A DNA stretch of 64,000 nt. Source: Shigella phage PSD9. Under the pieces are notes generated by a model. It was not told where the DNA came from, did no database searches, and saw only the letters and a program-made list of their open reading frames with translations. The stretch lies in the sequence record MZ561532. One strand, written 5' to 3'. This document shows, piece after piece, positions 1,815 to 53,055 of the stretch (positions within the stretch are counted from its first letter, which is position 1; each line of letters begins with the position of its first letter). Position numbers and translations under genes: made by a program.

Positions 1815-4800
1815 ATGGCCGATATTTTAAAACCTGCCTTCCGTGCTACATCCGGACTCGATGCTGCAGGCGAGAAAGTTATCAATGTTGCCAAAGCCGA
1901 TTACAATGTATTAGACGACGGCGTCAACGTTGAATTCTTTATAGATGAGAACACCATCCAGGCGTACGACGAGACGCGCGGATATAAGAAAGGGTTTGCC
2001 GTAATCCATGACCAACGTATCTGGGTTGCTCAACGTGATATCGATGCTCCAGCAGGAACCTTTGTACCGGGTTATTGGACTGCAACTCGTACTGACCCTA
2101 AATGGATTACCGTAGCATCTCCTACACGCCAGCTGGCTTCCGGTGAATATATTGCTGTGGATTCTGCTGCTAGCTTTACTACATTTACCCTGCCTCCGAA
2201 CCCTACTGATGGTGATACCATCGTAATCAAGGATATTGGTGGCCGTGTAGGTTATAATGAAATTAAGCTCCAGTCTAGTTCTGCTCCAGGTGGTGGTAAT
2301 CAGAAAATTGTCCGTTTCGGTAACCAGTTCACTGAGACCTTAATTACGAAGCCTTTTTCCTATAATATGATTATCTTTGCCAACCGTTTATGGCATTTCT
2401 GGGAAGCAGCTAATGAAGAACGTGGTATTCGTGTAGAACCGAACACTGCCCAGTTCCAATCACAAGCGGGTGATAACGTTTTACGTCGTTATACTTCAGG
2501 TGCAGTAATTAAGTTTACTCTTCCTAAGTATGCGAACCAAGGTGATATTATTAAAACCGTTGATATCGATGGTTTAGGAAGTAAATTCCACTTAATCGTT
2601 GAAACATTTGATGCGTCATCTTCATTAGGTAAGCCTGGCCAGCATAGCATGGAATTCCGTACTTCAGGTGATGGATTCTTTGTTTATAACTCTACCGAAA
2701 AATTATGGTATGTTTGGGACGGCGACCGACAAACTCGTTTACGTGTAATTCGTGACGATGTTGAACTCTTGGCTAACGAAAGTGTTATTGTTTTTGGTCC
2801 TAATAACACGACACCCCAGACAATTAATATCACATTACCTACCGGTGTGGCCCAGGGTGATGTCGTTAAGATTGCTCTGAACTATCTCCGTAAAGCTCAG
2901 ACGGTAAATATTAAGGCTGCCGTAGGAGATAAGATTGCTTCATCCGTCCAGTTGCTTCAATTCCCTAAACGTTCAGAATATCCACCAGAAACCGAATGGG
3001 TATTGAATGACGTACTGACCTTTAATGGCAATATAAGTTATACTCCGGTTATTGAACTGAGTTATATCGAAGACACCACTACAGGTGGCAAATATTGGGT
3101 TGTTGCTCAGAACGTTCCTACTATAGAACGTGTGGATTCTAAAGATGATTTAACTCGTGCTCGTCTCGGTGTTATTGCCCTTGCGTCGCAGACTCAGGCA
3201 AACGTTGACCATGAAAATAACCCTGAGAAAGAACTTGCAATTACTCCACAGACTTTAGCTAATCGTGTAGCGACTGAATCTCGTCGTGGTATTGCTCGTA
3301 TTGCTACTACTGCTCAGGTGAACCAGGACACAACCTTCGCATTCCAGGACGATTTGATTATTTCTCCTAAGAAATTAAACGAACGTACTGCAACCGAAAC
3401 TCGCCGTGGTGTTGCTGAAATTGCTACGCAAGTTGAAACTAACACGGGTACAGATGATACTACAATCATCACTCCTAAGAAGCTACAAGCGCGCCAGGGT
3501 TCGGAAAGTCTTTCAGGTATTGTAACATATACCTCTACTGTAGGAACCGCTCCTGCGACTGCTAGGGACACCGTAGGTACTAACGTTTATAATAAGAACG
3601 TAGGCAATTTGGTTATTTCTCCTAAAGCTCTTGACCAGTATAAAGCTACCCAAGTTCAACAGGGTACGGTATATCTTTCTAACCAATCTGAAGTTAACGC
3701 AGGCCAATCGGCAAGTGGATTTGCCAACAGTGCTGTTTCTCCGGAAACATTACATGCTCGTGTGGCTCTTGATACTCGTACAGGGTTAATTGAAATTGCT
3801 ACGCAACAGGAAACTGATACTGGAACAGATTATACTCGTGCGGTAACACCTAAGACGTTAAATGATAGGAAAGCTACGGAAGGATTGACTGGTATTGCTA
3901 GAATTGCAACACAGGTAGAATTTGATGCAGGTACGTTAGATAATGTTATTTCAACTCCGTTGAAAATTAAAACAAGATTTAATGATACTGCTAGAACTTC
4001 TGTCTCAGCAGCCAGTGGTTTGGTTGAATCAGGAACCTTATGGAACCATTATACACTAGATATTAGAGAAGCAAATGAGACACAACGTGGTACTGCTCGC
4101 CTGGCAACCCAGACCGAAGTCAACGTTGGTACTGATGACAAAACCATCATCACTCCTTTGAAATTACACTCTAAAAAATCTACTGAAAGTTCTGAAGGTA
4201 TTATTCGTGTTGCAACCAATACCGAAACAACCGCAGGAACTTCTAAAGTTTTGGCTGTAAGCCCTTCTGGTTTAAAATATGTAGTACAGACCGAAACTAC
4301 TTGGGAAGCTACTGCACTTCGTCGTGGATTTGTTAAACTAACCGAAGGTGCTTTAACCCATTCAGGAAATAAAGTTACTGGTTCTGGTGTTAAATTTAAC
4401 TCAGGTACAGGCCTTTACGAGAACGATGATACTGTTCTGAATGCAGCGAACTATCCTAAAACAGGTTATGCTGTTTCATCTTACGAGATGAATAAAACTT
4501 TACAGAACTTTTTACCTATAAATGCTACGGCTGTGAACTCCGAGAAATTGGATGGCCTAGATTCACTTCAGTTCATTCGTAGAGACGTTGACCAAACGGT
4601 TAATGGTTCTTTAACGTTGACAAAACAATTGAACCTGGCAGCTCCTCTAGTGTCTTCTAGTACTGCTAATATTACCGGCAATACTATTTTAGGTTCTCTG
4701 GAAGTAACCGGAAATTCTACTTTTAAAAATGATGTATCTGTTAGCTCAGGTAAATCTATTAAATTTGTAGGCCCTCAGTCAGGCGCTGGTACTTGGAACT

Positions 4801-25710: not shown

Positions 25711-25734
25711 GTTATTTCCTCATGTAGTAGGAGA

Positions 25735-25759
25735 ATATTATCCCATTTCACTTAAAGCA
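25735..25759 (-). promoter_or_regulatory. Candidate MotA-dependent middle promoter for gene 39
   Basis: Minus strand aTGCTTTA (MotA-box consensus) then 12 nt then TAATAT, 25 nt upstream of the gene 39 ATG. Confidence 0.4.
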
Positions 25760-25777
25760 TAAAAGGGCCGAAGCCCT
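25760..25777 (-). terminator. Intrinsic terminator GGGC-UUCG-GCCC plus U4
   Basis: gggccgaagccc immediately 3' of the lipoprotein stop on the minus strand, followed by UUUU. Confidence 0.5.
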
Positions 25778-26037
25778 TAATCAAATCGAATGGTCGACTT
25801 TTTAAAGAATAACCCAGAACAAACGGTTCCTTCAACCCTTTTACCCGTCGGACCGACAGCAATAAAGCCTGTACGTTGGAAATCATCTTCAGAGCAGCCA
25901 AATAGGTTGTATCCTGTGATTTGAATTTGTTCGTAGCCATTTGCATCCAATACACGGGTAGCATTATCGGCATCAGTACAACCAACCAACGAAACGGCTA
26001 GTACAAGAGCTGCAATAGAACGATTAATATATTTCAT
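25777..26037 (-). CDS. Predicted lipoprotein (86 aa)
   Basis: Signal peptide with lipobox MKYINRSIAALVLAVSLVGC; ends at the terminator hairpin. Confidence 0.6.
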   Translation of the reverse strand: MKYINRSIAALVLAVSLVGCTDADNATRVLDANGYEQIQITGYNLFGCSEDDFQRTGFIAVGPTGKRVEGTVCSGLFFKKSTIRFD

Positions 26038-40135: not shown

Positions 40136-40576
40136 TTAACCTCGATTCATAAAGGCATTAAAAATCTGGTCATCTATTGAATAAACCGGAGCTTCCAGAA
40201 TTTTCAACAGACTGTTTTTGATATACTTGCTAGGGATGTCCATATTAACGCGGTCGTTCAATTCGTTGTCTGGGAGGATGTCTTTAAATTCGAATCCATC
40301 AAACTCAACCTTGTCAGGAATACCTTCAGCGAAAAAATAAACCAATTGGTGCATTGTATTGCACGAAAATAATTTAGACCTCACCGCGATAAGTTCTTGC
40401 CAATGGTTTAATTCTCTGTTAAGAAGTTTATGAGCCATTGTAATTCGATCATCGCTATCAACAAGAAAATAACCCAGGTATTGGTGGTCGTCGCTCCAAA
40501 ACATCCTGTATGCTTGTGCATTTGGATTTTTACAACGAAGTTTTTTGATAACTAAATTTCTGTTAATCTTATTCAC
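40136..40576 (-). CDS. Hypothetical protein (146 aa)
   Basis: Track ORF. Confidence 0.5.
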   Translation of the reverse strand: MNKINRNLVIKKLRCKNPNAQAYRMFWSDDHQYLGYFLVDSDDRITMAHKLLNRELNHWQELIAVRSKLFSCNTMHQLVYFFAEGIPDKVEFDGFEFKDILPDNELNDRVNMDIPSKYIKNSLLKILEAPVYSIDDQIFNAFMNRG

Positions 40577-40862
40577 CTGTCACCTCTTTAACGATATTTT
40601 TGTTATCGAAATTGGCATCACAATACAAATTCCAGTTATATTGCATAACACCACCTGAAGCTAATTGGTCTGACACTTCTTTAGCCATGTCAGGACGGTC
40701 GCGTTTAGTGATGTTCATGATATCAGCATAAATCTGATGCTCAACCGCTTCTTGATCGGCAGTCATAGACCATTCACAAAGGTCTTTATCCAATCCAGCC
40801 GTAACTGGAGCCGTGCCACATGACGCTACTGTAAGGATTGCTGCGATTAATAACTTTTTCAT
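40569..40862 (-). CDS. Predicted lipoprotein (about 97 aa)
   Basis: Track ORF 40569..40892; ATG 40862 gives MKKLLIAAILTVASCG (signal peptide plus lipobox); directly downstream of an early promoter. Confidence 0.55.
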   Translation of the reverse strand: MKKLLIAAILTVASCGTAPVTAGLDKDLCEWSMTADQEAVEHQIYADIMNITKRDRPDMAKEVSDQLASGGVMQYNWNLYCDANFDNKNIVKEVTGE

Positions 40863-45788: not shown

Positions 45789-46483
45789 TTCAGGAATCCT
45801 CGAACGTAGTCAAAATCACGTTCAAATACGTGTGCACTAACCATAGTATGGGAATACGTACCCAGACCAACACCACACTGTTCAGCAATAAAGGCCATCA
45901 GTTTACCCTGCAGATAGAAATCCAGCTGCATAACAATAGCACAGTTCTGTGAACGCATATGGGTATGTGCATAAAGACGTCCATCACGAATATAATATGT
46001 CACTGAATCAGTACATGGATATTCTAAGGATTCGTCAGAATCAAGGAGGGCTTGGTCTTGTTCTTGGAGAATTTGGAACACAACTCGTCTTGAGTTAGGC
46101 TTCTCTTTAAGCTCTTTAAGTAAGGCTGGGAGTTGGGCCACAATTCTAGGTCCATAGAAAGTGTTGAAGTTTGCAGGCAATACGTCACTTTTCGGCTTAT
46201 CAATGAACTTAGCAACATTAGGGTATTCCTTAAATGCTTCGGCGGCGTCAGTACCACCAGAAATCATAAACTTCCAGAAAGATTCGGCATAATCATAGCT
46301 GATACGATTAATACGAGGGTCGGTGAATTTATAGGTGCTTGCATCCAGTACTTCTACCGAAGCAGAACCAATTTCATAACAACGGCCGATACGAGAATCA
46401 ACTGCAAACTGTGGAGCTTCCAGGATTTCTTCGTTCATTTGCTTAAACGCGTTTTCAAAACTAACAGCGGTAATGTGTTTCAT
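45785..46483 (-). CDS. 42: dCMP hydroxymethylase gp42 (thymidylate-synthase fold)
   Basis: 232-aa ORF; KPNSRRVVF, CTDSVTYYIRDGRLYAHTHMRSQNCAIVM and SAHVFERDF align with recalled T4 gp42 (NPDSRRGIM, CTNTVQYLIRDKKINAVVNMRSNDVVFG, GSLHVYSRHF). Confidence 0.8.
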   Translation of the reverse strand: MKHITAVSFENAFKQMNEEILEAPQFAVDSRIGRCYEIGSASVEVLDASTYKFTDPRINRISYDYAESFWKFMISGGTDAAEAFKEYPNVAKFIDKPKSDVLPANFNTFYGPRIVAQLPALLKELKEKPNSRRVVFQILQEQDQALLDSDESLEYPCTDSVTYYIRDGRLYAHTHMRSQNCAIVMQLDFYLQGKLMAFIAEQCGVGLGTYSHTMVSAHVFERDFDYVRGFLK

Positions 46484-47016
46484 TTATTCACCTTATTTTC
46501 AATATATTCATTCAGACGTTTTAATTCTACCATATCGACGTTAAGCAAGTTATTATGGCCGTCGTGATTTAAGATTTTAAACACGTTTTCAAAACATGTT
46601 TCGTATTGGCGGATAGTTAGGTTGAACTCATCTTTGGTTAATTTAATAAGGTCATCTTCAAAGTCTTTATCCAGTGGATTACGGGTTAAAATAACCTCAA
46701 TAATATTGAATTCAGATTTAAACCTTTTCCAATCTTCCAGTTCTACATAAGGGTCCATTTCACCGCGAAGGAATCCCGAGTAAACAATATTACTTGGATA
46801 ACCACGGTCAAGGATGTAAACGAAATTAGGGTCTAAAAACTTATACAACGTCTCGACTAAAGCCTTGTCATTATCGGTCCCTAATGAAATGCATTTGCCA
46901 TTAATCTTTTTAGGGAAATCAATAAGACGATATTTCTTATCAGATAAAAGTGATTCAATTAAAGTAGACTTCCCGGAATTATCCGGGCCGTCGATAACAA
47001 TGATTTTTGGTTTCAC
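46480..47016 (-). CDS. P-loop nucleotide/nucleoside kinase-like protein (thymidylate-kinase fold)
   Basis: Walker A IVIDGPDNSGKSTL at the N-terminus and a downstream LDRGYPS (DR motif); ATGA coupling to gene 42. Confidence 0.6.
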   Translation of the reverse strand: MKPKIIVIDGPDNSGKSTLIESLLSDKKYRLIDFPKKINGKCISLGTDNDKALVETLYKFLDPNFVYILDRGYPSNIVYSGFLRGEMDPYVELEDWKRFKSEFNIIEVILTRNPLDKDFEDDLIKLTKDEFNLTIRQYETCFENVFKILNHDGHNNLLNVDMVELKRLNEYIENKVNK

Positions 47017-47387
47017 GGATGATATGCCTTATAGGTTTCAAGAGTTCCTTCACGAACCATTTCTTTAAAGTGGTCAGGACGGATTGCTCGGTCATCGATG
47101 ATAAAAGTATAACTCGGCTTATGTGTAAGCAGATTGTGATATTTCAATCCAATCTTTTCAAGGTTCTTAACTAATGCAGGAACTACTTCAACCAAGATTC
47201 GACCCGGGCCGCATGAAGTCATACCACGGGCAGTGAACAAGGTAATCTCGTACCCTTCATCATAAAGCTTATTAATCATGGACACCATTTCGGTGTCCGG
47301 TTTAAAGTTTTCGTAATCACGGTCATCTTGCCAGTGAGTAATGGTATTATCGATATCAAAACACAGATGCATTAAATTTTCTTCCAT
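47013..47387 (-). CDS. HAD-superfamily phosphatase-like protein
   Basis: HAD motif I CFDIDNTIT (DxDxT), motif II LFTARG, motif IV FIIDDRA; ATGA coupling to the kinase gene. Confidence 0.6.
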   Translation of the reverse strand: MEENLMHLCFDIDNTITHWQDDRDYENFKPDTEMVSMINKLYDEGYEITLFTARGMTSCGPGRILVEVVPALVKNLEKIGLKYHNLLTHKPSYTFIIDDRAIRPDHFKEMVREGTLETYKAYHP

Positions 47388-49045
47388 TGTTTGTGGAGTT
47401 CGGTAGAACCTGTAGGTTTATATTTTACACCAGTTTCCTGGTCAAGCAAAACCCACTTATCAGGACAACGAGTGATAATTTGAGCCGTGATAGGGTCGCG
47501 AACTTCATCAACGAATTCACCTGTGATAAGCTTACGCTTACGAGGATGCCGCTTCAGCAGCACACTCAGTTGATATAGCCCATTGTAATAAGCGCCCAGA
47601 GCTTTCAGAGGGTTATTTTTAAAGTAACCTGCCAATGCCATCCAAATAACGGCAATCCAGAGCTTGTGCTTAAATGTACACATCGGAATATCATCTAAAG
47701 GCATAACCTTTTCAATATCAACGAATACACGAGTTCCGTTACGAGTTAAGCCACCCCATAGAGGGTCAGAGTTAAATTTGTCATAACCATCGATAGAATA
47801 AAGCACCTTAGCTTCATCATAAATCGCAGGGCCTTTAGAACTATTACCAAAATAACCACGTGGGTCGATGATTTTAATATTACCTTCGTCCGACAACATA
47901 ATATTACTGTAGTGCGGGTCGCCATGAATAAGTTGGTACGGTTCTTTATGTTCAGACAGAATTTCTAGTGCATGACGAAGAAGTTTTTCAGGGTCGCCTA
48001 CCTTAAAGTCATTGACATGGGTAATGCCCTGTGGAGCAAAGCCTTCAATCAATCCGGCAATAGAAGCATTACGAATAAGGACCTTGTCCAATACTTCTTT
48101 CTTAACATCAGAATACCATTGCTCATCGGACGGATTATCGATAGTCCCACCGAACGAACGTAATGCACTAATAACCTTATAAACCATTAGGACTTTAGTT
48201 TCTTTAGACATAAACCGGTAGGCATCTGCCATGGTTCGACCAAAGATACGTTCCATTTTAATGAATTCGCCTGGAGCAAAGTCTACAATGCTAGGAACGA
48301 ATTCGGAATCAATAGAATTATACCAATTGATTTCTTTAGATTGGATTTCTTTACCCAATTCGTTAGTTGGTACTTTAATAGCTAGATTCTCGGTGAACTC
48401 TAATTTATTAAATTCACGGTTAATTTCAGAATCTTCATGCGCCTTAGCCAGTTTCAGTTTGTCACCAACATCAACTACAAAGTCTAACTTACGTTCAGTC
48501 AAATGGACCATTGAATCCAGGTTGTCAGCAAGGTCTTCACCATAATTAGAACGGTCGAAACCTGTCCAATTAGCCACCTGATACAAGCCAACTACGCCAC
48601 CACCGGTACCAATTTCACGCAAGTACGGTTCTTCAAATGTAAAACGACAGTCAGTCCCATAGGTATAACAGTAGTCGTTATCCCACTCAACTTTATGACC
48701 TTCAGGAATAATATCACACCAGTTAAACAAGACATTGTGCCCAATGATATCTTCGGCAATGCAATCGATAGCATGAGCCGAACCATTGGCAACATCAACG
48801 TTACGAATAGTGAATTTAGGCTTATCACTATTAATCATGTTAATGGATTTAATATAGCCTTTAACGAGGTCGTTAAATTTGCTGTGAATAACCAGAATAA
48901 TTTCATCTGATTGATTACTATACAAATCATACAAATGTTTTAATACAGTATGTTGTTTGTAGTTAACCAGTACCTTCGGGATTTCGTTGGTAATTGGATA
49001 CAACCGTGAGCCAAGACCCGCGCCTAAAATAACAACCTTTTTCAT
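47372..49045 (-). CDS. Bifunctional sugar-1-phosphate nucleotidyltransferase / APH-type anomeric sugar kinase-like protein
   Basis: Track ORF 47372..49075; ATG 49045 with SD GAGGAAC gives MKKVVILGAGLGSRLYPITNEIPKVLV (nucleotidyltransferase G-x-G-x-R-L motif); C-terminal HGDPHYSNIML and IDPRGYFG are kinase catalytic and metal-binding motifs of the aminoglycoside-phosphotransferase fold. Confidence 0.6.
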   Translation of the reverse strand: MKKVVILGAGLGSRLYPITNEIPKVLVNYKQHTVLKHLYDLYSNQSDEIILVIHSKFNDLVKGYIKSINMINSDKPKFTIRNVDVANGSAHAIDCIAEDIIGHNVLFNWCDIIPEGHKVEWDNDYCYTYGTDCRFTFEEPYLREIGTGGGVVGLYQVANWTGFDRSNYGEDLADNLDSMVHLTERKLDFVVDVGDKLKLAKAHEDSEINREFNKLEFTENLAIKVPTNELGKEIQSKEINWYNSIDSEFVPSIVDFAPGEFIKMERIFGRTMADAYRFMSKETKVLMVYKVISALRSFGGTIDNPSDEQWYSDVKKEVLDKVLIRNASIAGLIEGFAPQGITHVNDFKVGDPEKLLRHALEILSEHKEPYQLIHGDPHYSNIMLSDEGNIKIIDPRGYFGNSSKGPAIYDEAKVLYSIDGYDKFNSDPLWGGLTRNGTRVFVDIEKVMPLDDIPMCTFKHKLWIAVIWMALAGYFKNNPLKALGAYYNGLYQLSVLLKRHPRKRKLITGEFVDEVRDPITAQIITRCPDKWVLLDQETGVKYKPTGSTELHKQWKKI

Positions 49046-49105
49046 TATCTGTTCCTCAAGTGAATGTAGGTACATTATACACTATTTTTAATAAATTGGT
49101 ATTGC

Positions 49106-49606
49106 TTAAATCTTATCTTTACCGATTTCAATACACTGTTCTATTGCCGCCGGTACTTTGGTCTTGAGCTTATCGATTTGTTTCTTATAATCACGAGCTT
49201 TACCGAAGCTCTCGGTTTCGAGCATTTCGTAATAACGAGCCTCGTGGATGGAAATCTGTAGATTGATATGGTTTACGCACATCGCATACAGTTTCTGCTT
49301 TTTGTACAAATCATCTTGACGCTTCATTTCTGCCTGGTGTTTGGCTAGTACCGCTTCACGCTTGGACTCTTGTTCACGTTGGAATTCGATTTCTTGTTGA
49401 GCATATTTTGCACAGTTATTACCGCATTGATTATTAGCTCGGGTGTACACAAGTCCAGAACCTGCACGGAATTTCATTTCGCCATCGAATTGTTTCTGTT
49501 CAGCTGCGATACGAGCTTTACCAACTTCATCGGCCGAAACTGTATCACCATATTGGACCGCGCAACCTGATAGGAGCATACTCATTGCGATAATTAACTT
49601 TTTCAT
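49106..49606 (-). CDS. Predicted lipoprotein (166 aa)
   Basis: Signal peptide and lipobox MKKLIIAMSMLLSGC; downstream of the imm-like genes. Confidence 0.55.
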   Translation of the reverse strand: MKKLIIAMSMLLSGCAVQYGDTVSADEVGKARIAAEQKQFDGEMKFRAGSGLVYTRANNQCGNNCAKYAQQEIEFQREQESKREAVLAKHQAEMKRQDDLYKKQKLYAMCVNHINLQISIHEARYYEMLETESFGKARDYKKQIDKLKTKVPAAIEQCIEIGKDKI

Positions 49607-49613
49607 AATATCC

Positions 49614-49751
49614 TCAATTAAAACAGTTATACTTAATTTGTGCTATAAGAATAATCCATCCAATGATGAGTGTCGGAATCATTGGCGGAATTGCCACTGC
49701 CCAATAAACGGTAAAGGCAGCCATTATAAGAAATAAAACAATTATTTTCAT
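49614..49751 (-). CDS. Small membrane peptide (45 aa), imm.1-like by position
   Basis: ATG 49751 overlaps the imm stop (ATGA); translation MKIIVLFLIMAAFTVYWAVAIPPMIPTLIIGWIILIAQIKYNCFN. Confidence 0.35.
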   Translation of the reverse strand: MKIIVLFLIMAAFTVYWAVAIPPMIPTLIIGWIILIAQIKYNCFN

Positions 49752-49984
49752 TGTTTAACAATAATGATTTGTGCGTTTGATTTACGTTCAGCGACGATAG
49801 CCCAGATTAAAGCCACTACCCAACCAATCATCGTCCAGCCTAACAGGAGATTAAGGAAGAAAATTCCTACATTACTACGAGTGCCTCGCAGAAGAGCCAG
49901 AATCCATGGTAAAAAGTAACCGATGAACATAATAACCAGAGAACCGAATCCTAAAACACCAGCACTAACGATTAAAGCTTCCAT
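49748..49984 (-). CDS. imm: Superinfection immunity protein Imm-like (two TM helices)
   Basis: 78-aa membrane ORF immediately downstream of gene 43 as in T4; assignment by position and topology. Confidence 0.55.
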   Translation of the reverse strand: MEALIVSAGVLGFGSLVIMFIGYFLPWILALLRGTRSNVGIFFLNLLLGWTMIGWVVALIWAIVAERKSNAQIIIVKQ

Positions 49985-50002
49985 TGTAATTTCCTCATGT
50001 AG

Positions 50003-50044
50003 TTGATAGGAAGGATACTACCACGTTCCTTGTGGTATGTAAAC
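50003..50044 (-). promoter_or_regulatory. Early promoter with conserved box, upstream of imm
   Basis: Minus strand GTTTAC-N18-TAGTAT-CCTTCCTATCAA. Confidence 0.5.
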
Positions 50045-50046
50045 AC

Positions 50047-52758
50047 TTAAAAGTCGAACATATCAAATAATGTTGCTTTTTTCTCGTAGTCGATTTTAGC
50101 AGACTCAGTAAAACCGGTCAGAGGTTTGATAAAGGTCTTTTGGAACAGTACGTTGTAGTCCATCCAACGGAGGACTTGGTCACGAATCTGAACCGGAAGT
50201 TCAATACCTGACGGCCATGCCATACAAGCTTCACCAAACGGGTTGCCTTCTTTAAGTGGCAGTACATATACCTTTTCACCATCAACGATACGAGGCATAG
50301 TCAAATCACCTGCAGAAGCACGCATGTAAGCTAAGCAACCTTTGATGTGGTATGGACATTTAGAACCCGGGAATCCACCTTCATTATATTTCTCGATGTT
50401 GTTAGCACTGGATACTGCTGCAATGCTTACATAATCGAGTTCGTTAAATTCCTTATTAAACTGTTTGAAATATTCTTGCAAAGATGCCTCGCCTTCCTGA
50501 AGCATACGACGGATACATTCCTTCAGAGCTTTCTGAACTGCTTTAGGTGTACTTGATTTCTGAGTTTCGAGACCCATGATTTTCAAGTGTGGTTCAGCAT
50601 AACGAGTACCTTCCATGTCCCAAACGTTAAGTGCATAACGTTTCTTGCCTGTCCAGAATCCACCAAGGCCTTTAGAACCAAGTGGAGGACCTGCGATAGC
50701 TTCTCGGTCCATGAACATCAAGTGTTGTTTGTTGTTCATGTATTCGCACATCTCACGGAAGCCTGCATCAATAGCTGGTTCCATACGTTCACGTGCAAAT
50801 TTATCTAAGAAGTCGACCCAGTGGTTAGTATCACGGAATTTATCTTCGCCTACTTTATTGATGATTGCATCTGCCTTAACATAAATGGAGTCAGTATCAC
50901 CGTAGAGCACGAACTTCTGGTTTTCAGTCTTACACACACTATTCAGATATTCGTTAACCTTACGTTCAATCCATTGGAGGGCCATTTGACCAAACAATGT
51001 GATTGCAGTTGCGTTCCTGAGGTCATAGTAACGGAACCATACGTTACCAAGTGCACCATAAAGGGAGTTGATAAGCAACTTACGGTTAATCTGAGCAGTG
51101 TTACCTGCAACTTCAGTGAGCTCGGCTTTCTTCAACATTTCTCTTAAAGAAGGCGCTGACAGTGCTTTAATCTGGGCTTTGATTTCGTCAGAGAAGTCAA
51201 AACGATAATCGATATCCAGTGGACTATCAACTGAGAGATTAGGATTTTCCAATGCTTCTTTAATTAACTCGCCATTACGTTGAGCTGCAAGCATGTAACC
51301 TTTATGTTCTTTACGCTGCAAGAATACCTTTGTGATTTCTGTCGGAATCACACCTTCACGGTCTTTATAATACATCATGCCGTTAGGAGAGCAACTGTAG
51401 GTGTCGCTAGGACGCGGAGCTGTTCCGGCAATATATTCATGTATCGGTGCGTTAGCGAATGTCCCTGCGATGGTCTCTGGGCTTATATTCACTTGTCGAA
51501 TGATACTCGGATACAGAGATGTAAGGTCGAAACTCATTACATATTTGTAAGCGTTAGGAATCGGTTCCTTAACGAAAGCACCAGGATAAGGTTGGACCAC
51601 GTGTGAGCGAGCTTGTGGAATTACCTTGCCTTGTTCTTTAAGGCTATTAAAGATAATAGCGTCCCAAGTCTTAATTGGGCTGAACACCGACTGAATCTGC
51701 ATCTTGGCATAATAACCCATGTCCAAACTCAGAAGAATGAACTGACGCTTCATATCAATCTGCACTACACGATATACGTCGATAATGTTATAGGAAATAT
51801 ATCGTTGGTGGTTCGTCTCACGTAACTTAGAGATTGGACCATCATATTTCAACTTACCCACTTTCAATTCATATTCAGAAACATAATCCAGAGAATAAGA
51901 AGGCTGGTTGGTGAAGCTGAATTTTTTATAGAGGTCGATATAATCCAGAACAGAGATACCGAACAATGTAATGATTTCACGAGCACCGTACATGTTCTCA
52001 ATAACTTTAACACGAGTTTTACGATGTGGGCTTAATCGCTTAGCAGTGTTCTCACCGAACAGATTTTTCAGACGGTTATAAACGTACGGTACGTCAAACG
52101 ACTCAACGTTCCATCCAGTCAAAATCACAGGAGTTTTCTGTTGCCAGAAATTCAAGTACTCAAGCATCATTTCTTCTTCAGAATTAAACGGAAGATAAAC
52201 GATTTTGTCAATGATTTCCTGTGGAACTTCGTCACCGCCTTCGTCTTGGAGTTTCTCAGCGATTTTAATCGACCACTCTTCGACAGTACCATAAGGCGAA
52301 ACTAAAAGGTCGAATACATAGAATTTATCGTCAATCGAGTCGTAGTGGGTAATGGCATCGATAGGATGTTTAGCCTGAGCTGGTTCAGGGAATCCATCAG
52401 GAGATGTTACCTCGATGTCGAAGTTAGCAATACGAATCTTAGAAGAATCATATCTGATTTCTTTACGATAGGTATCAGACAAATAGGCTAATTTATAGTC
52501 GTCCATACCCAGGGCTTCGAGACCCATATCGTCCATACGTTTCATCCATTGGGATGCATCACGCATAGAGTCGAATTCTTTCTTAACACAACCCTTACCA
52601 TAGATATCAATGTATTTTACGGCTTGCTCTGGATTAGCATGCATAAACATTGTAGGCTTGTAAGGAACTTCACGACTACGTTCGTTACCATTTTTATCGA
52701 TGTAACGTTCGAGAATATTATCACCGATTTGTTCGACTGTCAAATAGAATTCTTGCAT
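50047..52758 (-). CDS. 43: DNA polymerase gp43 (family B)
   Basis: Track ORF 50047..52818; ATG 52758 gives MQEFYLTVEQIGDNILERYIDKNGNERSREV..., matching the recalled T4 gp43 N-terminus (MKEFY...); exonuclease and polymerase motifs (e.g. YGDTDS) conserved throughout. Confidence 0.95.
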   Translation of the reverse strand: MQEFYLTVEQIGDNILERYIDKNGNERSREVPYKPTMFMHANPEQAVKYIDIYGKGCVKKEFDSMRDASQWMKRMDDMGLEALGMDDYKLAYLSDTYRKEIRYDSSKIRIANFDIEVTSPDGFPEPAQAKHPIDAITHYDSIDDKFYVFDLLVSPYGTVEEWSIKIAEKLQDEGGDEVPQEIIDKIVYLPFNSEEEMMLEYLNFWQQKTPVILTGWNVESFDVPYVYNRLKNLFGENTAKRLSPHRKTRVKVIENMYGAREIITLFGISVLDYIDLYKKFSFTNQPSYSLDYVSEYELKVGKLKYDGPISKLRETNHQRYISYNIIDVYRVVQIDMKRQFILLSLDMGYYAKMQIQSVFSPIKTWDAIIFNSLKEQGKVIPQARSHVVQPYPGAFVKEPIPNAYKYVMSFDLTSLYPSIIRQVNISPETIAGTFANAPIHEYIAGTAPRPSDTYSCSPNGMMYYKDREGVIPTEITKVFLQRKEHKGYMLAAQRNGELIKEALENPNLSVDSPLDIDYRFDFSDEIKAQIKALSAPSLREMLKKAELTEVAGNTAQINRKLLINSLYGALGNVWFRYYDLRNATAITLFGQMALQWIERKVNEYLNSVCKTENQKFVLYGDTDSIYVKADAIINKVGEDKFRDTNHWVDFLDKFARERMEPAIDAGFREMCEYMNNKQHLMFMDREAIAGPPLGSKGLGGFWTGKKRYALNVWDMEGTRYAEPHLKIMGLETQKSSTPKAVQKALKECIRRMLQEGEASLQEYFKQFNKEFNELDYVSIAAVSSANNIEKYNEGGFPGSKCPYHIKGCLAYMRASAGDLTMPRIVDGEKVYVLPLKEGNPFGEACMAWPSGIELPVQIRDQVLRWMDYNVLFQKTFIKPLTGFTESAKIDYEKKATLFDMFDF

Positions 52759-52814
52759 TTCATTTCCTTTATAGACGAGTGATTGTCTTTTGTTTGTTGA
52801 TGAATCATTATACT

Positions 52815-52834
52815 CCAAAAGGGACCGAAGTCCC
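52815..52834 (-). terminator. GGGAC-UUCG-GUCCC hairpin plus U4 between regA-side genes and gene 43
   Basis: gggaccgaagtccc followed on the minus strand by UUUU, then a TATAAT-like hexamer (plus 52807..52812) upstream of the gene 43 leader. Confidence 0.5.
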
Positions 52835-52839
52835 TTTGC

Positions 52840-53055
52840 TTAAATTTCTATTGTAAAACGTTTAATGGATGGATTGCCATATTCGTCTTTAGTTCTAATC
52901 ATAACCTGGAAGACTTGCTGTCCGGGATGTAATAACTTATGGAGGTCCTTTTGAAATTCTATTTGGAGCTCTTCGGAAAGGTCAAAAACAGTTTGAGTTG
53001 GAGAAAGTCCGTATACCTCTTTAAGACGTTCACATGTTTCAATTTCAAGAATCAT
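52840..53055 (-). CDS. Hypothetical protein (about 71 aa; start uncertain)
   Basis: Track ORF 52840..53121; ATG 53055 (MILEIETCERLKEV...) just downstream of the regA stop. Confidence 0.4.
   Translation of the reverse strand: MILEIETCERLKEVYGLSPTQTVFDLSEELQIEFQKDLHKLLHPGQQVFQVMIRTKDEYGNPSIKRFTIEI

Follow-up and report, generated by a model that had tools for sequence, protein, structure and literature searches.

The imm locus of Shigella phage PSD9

The window analysed here is a stretch of 64,000 nucleotides from Shigella phage PSD9 (sequence record MZ561532), and our subject is a group of three short genes on its minus strand, which encode an Imm-like protein, a small hydrophobic peptide and a predicted lipoprotein. 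The group begins directly downstream of gene 43, which encodes the DNA polymerase and ends at 50047. As given in the list of open reading frames (ORFs), imm (49748-49984 (-)) codes for 78 amino acids (aa) and has a GAGG Shine-Dalgarno sequence upstream of its ATG. The ORF of the hydrophobic peptide (49614-49751 (-); 45 aa) starts with an ATG that overlaps the TGA of imm, and the lipoprotein ORF (49106-49606 (-); 166 aa) begins 7 nt past the stop of the peptide gene and is preceded by GAGGA. An earlier note on this DNA, made from the sequence alone, had described the peptide as translationally coupled to imm through an ATGA; this motif is indeed present on the minus strand and appears as TCAT at 49748-49751 on the plus strand, with the ATG of the peptide lying in the overlap with the imm TGA.

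Between gene 43 and imm, a consensus scan together with reading of the sequence predicts a promoter-like site (50015-50043 (-)), which consists of GTTTACA, 17 nt and TG-n-TAGTAT, the TG being an extension, and which agrees with the consensus in 9/12 matches. In its form, this site resembles the early promoter type of T4. No terminator-like sites were found within 46300-50300, an Rfam scan of 46000-53000 gave no match, and a repeat scan returned only short repeats at chance level and similar 'ATGAAAAAG' gene starts.

Over the 1.3 kb compared, the window shows 100% identity to Escherichia phage vB_EcoM-E33 (OL780484; hereafter E33), and 95-99% identity to the majority of some 50 further phages, which belong chiefly to the genus Dhakavirus (JS98, JS10, Bp7, QL01, WG01 and others; Tevenvirinae). 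The ratios of non-synonymous to synonymous substitutions (dN/dS) relative to Dhakavirus Bp7 were 0 for imm, 0.095 for the peptide gene and 0.051 for the lipoprotein gene, and all three thus appear to be under purifying selection. Judging from these low ratios, the matches to PHROG families described below and the conserved overlap, the three ORFs are more than a product of chance. Sequence comparison identifies the segment as the imm locus of a T4-like phage of the genus Dhakavirus, a small cluster of putative envelope-protein genes downstream of the DNA polymerase gene.

The first gene encodes an orthologue of T4 Imm

The 78-aa protein scores 65.1 bits against Pfam PF14373 (gathering score 27.9; E 5.1e-18) and matches phrog_1039, 'immunity to superinfection', at 3e-32. 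A BLASTP alignment with T4 Imm spans the whole length at 43% identity (78 aa vs 83 aa) and places R33 and W50 at identical positions in both proteins, and the hydropathy profile displays two hydrophobic segments. These results bear out the earlier description of a two-TM Imm-like protein downstream of gene 43, and as judged by sequence the gene is a clear orthologue of T4 imm. It resembles its T4 counterpart in size, in hydrophobic profile, in its location downstream of gene 43 and in having a promoter-like site upstream.

T4 Imm is an inner-membrane protein, which stops the DNA of superinfecting T-even phages from crossing the inner membrane. A 2026 preprint attributes this block to binding of the tape-measure protein gp29, with which Imm co-purifies; Imm is by itself able to exclude T4 when expressed from a plasmid, and is weakened in exclusion by either of the substitutions R33A and W50A, of which the former affects the helical core and the latter a loop facing the tape-measure protein (preprint 10.64898/2026.03.06.709160). 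On the grounds of homology and of these two conserved residues, we suppose that the window Imm would insert into the inner membrane and keep the genomes of superinfecting T-even phages from being translocated, the most likely means being attachment to the tape-measure protein of the incoming phage. In this part of the locus both the gene and its type of mechanism are known, and the gene is already annotated: the records of E33 and of Dhakavirus relatives label the gene 'immunity to superinfection membrane protein'.

A conserved micro-protein gene overlaps imm

The 45-aa peptide matches phrog_3610 with an E of 1.7e-21, and its close homologues carry a precomputed match to Pfam PF26865. A word-indexed homologue search with the peptide returned 2 sequences. 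Homologues of 46-47 aa were found in eight further phages, namely SP18 (Gaprivervirus), PM2 (Mosugukvirus), PEi20, Q7622 and CIP9 (Kanagawavirus; unannotated in CIP9), CHI14 (Winklervirus), EcS1 (Kagamiyamavirus) and pEB20 (Mosigvirus); these genera, together with Dhakavirus and Tequatrovirus, are those in which the family occurs. The conserved core reads YW..(I/V)..P.MIPT(L/I)I..W....Q.KY.CFN, in which the P-x-M-I-P-T turn and the Q-x-K-[YF]-x-C tail are invariant across the aligned homologues. The peptide probably consists of two hydrophobic segments joined by this turn.

The family also includes a 49-aa ORF of T4, MKSKIIAALLLILMIIISIYYSVTVPLMIPTIILGWSLLLLQVKYECIN, which occupies the space separating imm from gene 42 (about NC_000866.4 26230-26376; 5231-5377 (-) of the compared stretch) and is matched by the hidden Markov model (HMM) of the peptide family at E 8e-19 and by phrog_3610 with a score of 1.2e-25. 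Like the window peptide, it carries the MIPT...Q.KY.C motif and overlaps the imm stop with its ATG as ATGA; it differs in its length (49 vs 45 aa) and in being followed by gene 42 instead of the lipoprotein gene. No feature is annotated between imm and gene 42 in the RefSeq record of T4 (NC_000866.4). The T4T record names the ORF '42.1', and many Tequatrovirus records omit it. Annotation is similarly uneven around the window itself, as Bp7, JS98 and JS10 carry an annotation for the 45-aa ORF that is missing from E33 and many other Dhakavirus records. SP18, T4 and a Dhakavirus-like contig from a metagenome all keep the ATGA-type overlap, and in every case read the start of the peptide gene overlaps the stop of the gene upstream, which is imm in Dhakavirus, Gaprivervirus and T4. 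As judged from this conservation, the peptide ORF is a real, conserved micro-protein gene of 45-49 aa.

The third gene encodes a predicted lipoprotein

The N-terminus of the third protein, MKKLIIAMSMLLSGC, has lysines at positions 2 and 3, no charged residue at positions 5-10 and the sequence L-L-S-G-C, with the cysteine at position 15. On direct reading, it satisfies the rule of PROSITE PS00013, in agreement with the lipobox (LSGC) named in the earlier note; the residue at +2 is alanine. The lipobox is kept in almost all members of the family. In two of them, from the phages MHG19 and P0026, an ordinary signal peptide takes its place, which suggests that the site of action is the periplasm and not the lipid anchor. 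Asp at +2 occurred in no family member read. According to the Lol sorting rule, Asp(+2) is the signal for retention in the inner membrane, and since this signal is lacking, anchoring in the outer membrane is expected. The lipoprotein thus probably faces the periplasm from an anchor in the outer membrane.

Residues 1-163 of the lipoprotein align to positions 2-147 of the 148 positions of the phrog_1754 profile (3.5e-52). An exhaustive profile search among 1.84 billion proteins returned 18 cluster representatives of the lipoprotein family, and the family is therefore small. Word-indexed searches yielded 11 sequences for the lipoprotein and 3 for T4 Imm.1, and tblastn detected the lipoprotein in 126 phage records, of which those listed are all T4-like. 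The hosts of the phages that carry the family belong to six genera (Escherichia, Salmonella, Klebsiella, Edwardsiella, Serratia and Pectobacterium). An alignment of 26 sequences revealed G49, G51, Y54, C110 and C158 to be invariant and a QCGxNC motif to be nearly so.

An AlphaFold2 model of the lipoprotein (pLDDT 79) comprises a short helix, a β-hairpin (42-56), a helix of ~70 residues (62-131) and two further packing helices at the C-terminus. The predicted layout thus runs from the conserved N-terminal motif through the β-hairpin, which bears G49, G51 and Y54, and the CGNNC motif into the ~70-residue helix and a C-terminal helical bundle. The invariant cysteines C110 and C158 are located in the first and the last of the C-terminal helices, an arrangement in the model that is consistent with a periplasmic disulfide.

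Fold searches with the lipoprotein returned generic helical matches only and nothing specific. Neither Pfam nor NCBIfam gave a name above threshold, and E33 and related records label the protein 'hypothetical'. Matches to models of MTBP_mid, FlgB and a type VI secretion system (T6SS) immunity lipoprotein were rejected, being either below threshold or confined to the signal peptide. We also rejected a reading as part of a two-component spanin: Rz-like matches were obtained for relatives only and were non-significant (E 0.17-0.25), the locus is situated among genes of replication and nucleotide metabolism, and PEi20 has separate pseT.2/pseT.3 spanin genes elsewhere.

Relation of the lipoprotein to T4 Imm.1

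In T4, the gene imm.1 between gene 43 and imm encodes a predicted lipoprotein (MKIAILVIALGLAGC...; Pfam DUF5481 / PF17578). Full-length matches to phrog_1754 were obtained for T4 Imm.1 (6.1e-43) and for its counterpart in Mosigvirus MM02 (5.1e-29), and the same PHROG is matched by the lipoproteins of S16 (5.2e-46) and KP1 (1.9e-15). Clear members of the window family are found in S16, KM16, Ursula and KP1 exactly at the position of Imm.1, that is, between gene 43 and imm. The mature N-termini of the window lipoprotein and T4 Imm.1 are alike (QGPVVNQSDVGK vs QYGDTVSADEVGK), and a relaxed profile alignment of the window family with T4 Imm.1 is collinear and includes both C-terminal cysteines. 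The two proteins hence have in common the lipobox, a mature N-terminus of the form QGxxVxxx[DE]VGK, two cysteines in C-terminal helices in the same order and a gene neighbourhood that includes imm and gene 43. They differ in that the window protein is 41 residues longer and possesses the CGNNC motif and a long charged helix, both of which are without counterpart in T4 Imm.1.

Direct comparison of the sequences gave no significant support for homology between the window family and T4 Imm.1. Using mature sequences, hhalign of the window family with T4 Imm.1 aligned 14-15 N-terminal residues at P 4e-4 to 9e-4 and a probability of 23-35%, which is not significant; hmmsearch of the window family against T4 Imm.1 gave an E of 0.86, and phmmer on mature sequences was likewise not significant. 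With full-length T4 Imm.1 as query against 3705 ORFs, the only non-self matches of phmmer came from the lipoprotein family, at E 0.009-0.18, scores to which the signal peptide contributes. The DUF5481 model recognizes T4 Imm.1 (239 bits) and the MM02 protein (37 bits), and it left the window lipoprotein and those of SP18, PM2, CHI14, S16 and Ursula unmatched at E up to 10. We therefore place the window lipoprotein in the Imm.1 group as PHROGs defines it, but outside Pfam DUF5481, and its proposed link to T4 Imm.1 is drawn from the common PHROG, the collinear motifs and synteny only.

Gene order across T-even genera

The three genes recur in several arrangements. T4 (Tequatrovirus) has the order 43, lipoprotein (imm.1), imm, peptide, 42, whereas the window has 43, imm, peptide, lipoprotein and then genes of cytosine arabinosylation; the order 43, imm, peptide, lipoprotein is that of Dhakavirus and Gaprivervirus. 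Gelderlandvirus (S16), Moonvirus (KM16), Ursula, Jiaodavirus (KP1) and Phi_KR1 share the order 43, lipoprotein, imm, 42, and in Yersinia phage MHG19 a secreted, non-lipidated variant stands in the place of the lipoprotein (43, variant, imm, 42). Kanagawavirus, Winklervirus, Mosugukvirus and Kagamiyamavirus exhibit the order 43, lipoprotein, isomerase, peptide, nucleotidyltransferase/kinase, with imm not at the locus. In Mosigvirus, Imm.1, imm and spackle lie together between genes 41 and 61, and the peptide gene is near gene 43. The consecutive genes for the Imm.1-type lipoprotein, Imm and Spackle are seen, for example, in MM02 (3495-4530 of the compared stretch), where all are annotated as hypothetical.

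Of the T-even genera examined, all but Mosigvirus thus have the lipoprotein gene next to gene 43; in Mosigvirus, it is found with imm, beside spackle. It adjoins imm in T4, S16, KM16, Ursula, KP1, Phi_KR1, MHG19 and MM02 (at least eight genera) and is one gene away from it in Dhakavirus and Gaprivervirus. Judging from these gene orders, the pairing of the lipoprotein with Imm is frequent, and it is preserved in Mosigvirus at a different locus.

A variant lipoprotein allele in a metagenomic contig and a chromosomal homologue

A Dhakavirus-like contig from Logan (SRR14039959; 1-1519) shares ~89% identity with the window over the imm, peptide and nucleotidyltransferase genes, and is without DNA similarity over the body of the lipoprotein gene. 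Its allele encodes 135 aa with 26% identity and carries an ordinary signal peptide and no lipobox. On sequence evidence, this difference is a cassette-like swap of a single gene. Furthermore, Logan contigs (4001-4459 and 1633-2091) contain a 152-aa family lipoprotein that is 31% identical to a member from a T4-like phage (E 2e-17). This gene resides in an enterobacterial chromosome beside ybiT, a large serine recombinase, an acetyltransferase, a helix-turn-helix (HTH) regulator and a small secreted protein, a context that suggests an integrative element carrying a phage-type lipoprotein. The allele swap and the integrative-element copy are patterns common in competition genes and may be taken as hints in that direction, which prove nothing.

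Possible roles of the lipoprotein and the peptide

We consider it probable, though by no means secure, that the whole is best explained as an imm locus in which the lipoprotein and the peptide serve as accessory envelope factors. The lipoprotein would be exported, lipidated and anchored so that it faces the periplasm, and the micro-protein would reside in the inner membrane. Once a phage has adsorbed, both would be active in the infected cell's periplasm or inner membrane, without masking an outer-membrane receptor. Interception of the arriving tail tip or protection of the envelope might be their task there, beside Imm and Spackle and not in strict dependence on Imm.

T4 Spackle (Sp) is a periplasmic inhibitor of the gp5 tail lysozyme and is not lipidated. 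It resembles the window lipoprotein in being an early secreted periplasmic protein, with a part in T-even exclusion and a gene that directly follows those of Imm.1 and Imm in Mosigvirus; it differs in its lack of lipidation, and no sequence or fold similarity between the two was found. The window has its own Spackle homologue at ~40569-40862 (-), ~9 kb from imm, which matches Mosigvirus Sp in phmmer at E 2.8e-45; the ORF as listed starts 10 codons before MKKLLIAA, the likely start. Its presence may be counted as another hint of competition between phages.

The earlier note had gone further and proposed that the three genes form a superinfection-exclusion cassette. The Imm orthologue and the recurrence of the lipoprotein together with Imm in many T-even genera sustain part of this proposal, in which the peptide and the lipoprotein themselves would be putative members only. 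We regard a part of either of these two in superinfection exclusion as unlikely, if worth keeping in mind. A bolder version is speculative, and we would give it little credence: Imm and the micro-protein in the inner membrane and the lipoprotein with its long helical stalk in the outer membrane might constitute an envelope-spanning apparatus that intercepts the tail tip, with the lipoprotein alleles setting which competitors are excluded, and that has gone unrecognised in T4.

Several observations weigh against a joint function. What points to an exclusion role of the two neighbours is solely their gene neighbourhood, and in the only paper found in full text to mention Imm.1, a part in exclusion is offered as speculation. 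T4 Imm excludes T4 by itself, and partners are therefore not required. In Mosigvirus, the peptide gene is ~10 kb away from imm. Moreover, Mosigvirus, Kanagawavirus, Winklervirus, Mosugukvirus and Kagamiyamavirus have a gene for an arabinose-5-phosphate isomerase (SIS) upstream of the peptide; since the peptide is coupled to imm or to the isomerase depending on the genus, the coupling is a property of the peptide gene and not of an Imm-peptide pair. In Edwardsiella phage PEi20 (NC_028683), Imm was not found (best E 0.2) when 150 of its 177.6 kb were searched with HMMs in all six frames, a search which covered the genome outside 100001-127699 (structural genes wac to gene 54). PEi20 retains the lipoprotein, the peptide and Spackle, and neither of the first two thus needs Imm for its retention. 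PEi20 may itself depend on other means of exclusion. Finally, the gene content of the locus varies between genera, and adjacency may therefore reflect common ancestry and shared early transcription, not common function.

These points lead to the strongest alternative, namely that nothing but descent has made neighbours of the three genes. Imm would then be the sole exclusion gene, and the lipoprotein and micro-protein would serve some other envelope task, such as stabilising the envelope, timing lysis or counteracting a periplasmic factor of the host, sharing an early transcription unit after gene 43. Such a view accommodates the sufficiency of T4 Imm for exclusion as well as the persistence of the lipoprotein and the peptide in PEi20 and in five phages in which imm is not at the locus (PM2, CHI14, EcS1, CIP9 and Q7622). 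Each pair among the three genes is separated in some genus, and none of them is retained as widely as the lipoprotein, whose role would by this token be broader than the support of Imm. The view sits less well with Mosigvirus, in which Imm.1 and imm remain adjacent, beside spackle, at a locus other than that of T4, and with the adjacency or near-adjacency of lipoprotein and imm in the further genera listed above. Replacement of the lipoprotein allele alone and the copy in a bacterial integrative element, often patterns of conflict genes, likewise argue for more than descent. We hold neighbourhood by descent alone to be possible and to deserve serious weight, if somewhat doubtful as the full account.

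The lipoprotein could instead mask an outer-membrane receptor in the manner of T5 Llp or of Cor from T1/phi80, blocking later adsorption or triggering and sparing progeny from debris; the precedent is T5 Llp (PMC9586334). The likeness is that of phage-encoded outer-membrane lipoproteins made during infection, and a phage-encoded lipoprotein without Asp(+2) is probably in the outer membrane. In addition, the one Dhakavirus-like contig with a strongly divergent allele is what might be expected if the target varies. However, the match of the lipoprotein to phrog_1119 (Cor) is limited to residues 1-18, that is, the signal peptide (E 0.015), and beyond this we found no homology to Llp or Cor, no Pfam match and only the generic helical matches of the fold searches. 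The N-terminal motif, the GxGxxY hairpin and the cysteine pair are kept across phages of six host genera, which differ in their receptors and cannot all share a single one. Purifying selection is strong within Dhakavirus (dN/dS 0.05), and two family members do without a lipid anchor. The analogy to T5 Llp drawn in the earlier note is hence without sequence or fold support and fits poorly with so widely conserved a family, and we judge receptor masking to be very unlikely. Action as accessory factors in the envelope after adsorption remains the explanation that we favour.

Neighbouring genes and cytosine arabinosylation

The lipoprotein gene is followed by three further genes on the minus strand, which encode a nucleotidyltransferase and kinase fusion of 567 aa (47372-49075 (-)), a HAD-like phosphatase of 124 aa (47013-47387 (-)) and a P-loop kinase-like protein of 178 aa (46480-47016 (-)). 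These genes at 46480-49075 (-), which extend toward uvsX, correspond to the cytosine arabinosylation cluster. A cluster for arabinosyl-5-hydroxycytosine has been described for RB69 and inferred for Dhakaviruses (PMC13326640). As a further observation on arabinosylating T4-like phages, a small protein is encoded directly upstream of the gene 42 homologue; it has 79 aa in PEi20 (25733-25972 (-) of the compared stretch), and its 119-aa counterpart in another contig (9644-10003) matches chorismate mutase type 2 (PF01817), which is odd for the locus.

The peptide might belong to this described cluster (PMC13326640), perhaps tethering the sugar-nucleotide enzymes to the membrane or regulating them, with no relation to Imm, as its overlap with the isomerase stop and its position directly before the nucleotidyltransferase/kinase gene in Mosigvirus, Kanagawavirus, Winklervirus, Mosugukvirus and Kagamiyamavirus could indicate; yet in T4 and SP18 it directly follows imm with no arabinosylation genes at the locus, and a hydrophobic peptide of 45 residues would have no obvious role in a soluble nucleotide-sugar pathway, which makes this reading extremely improbable.

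Implications for T-even phages

The core finding in itself adds nothing new, because Imm is a textbook exclusion protein that is already annotated here, and the families of the lipoprotein and the peptide are likewise in the catalogues. What is new is modest: on sequence grounds, the peptide family includes an ORF that is missing from the RefSeq record of T4, the JS98-type lipoprotein is the positional and PHROG-level counterpart of T4 Imm.1, and it can now be stated which genera keep which of the three genes. The annotation gaps in T4 and E33 are easily fixed. The comparative result is more useful than Imm itself, in that a lipoprotein of the Imm.1 group recurs at gene 43 or imm throughout the T-even genera examined, and a membrane peptide of 45-49 aa, often left without annotation, is conserved from T4 to Dhakavirus. 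If the lipoprotein or the peptide aids exclusion or protection of the envelope, this would add a component to a model system that has been studied for decades, and, as T-even phages exclude one another, it would also bear on the design of T-even phage cocktails.

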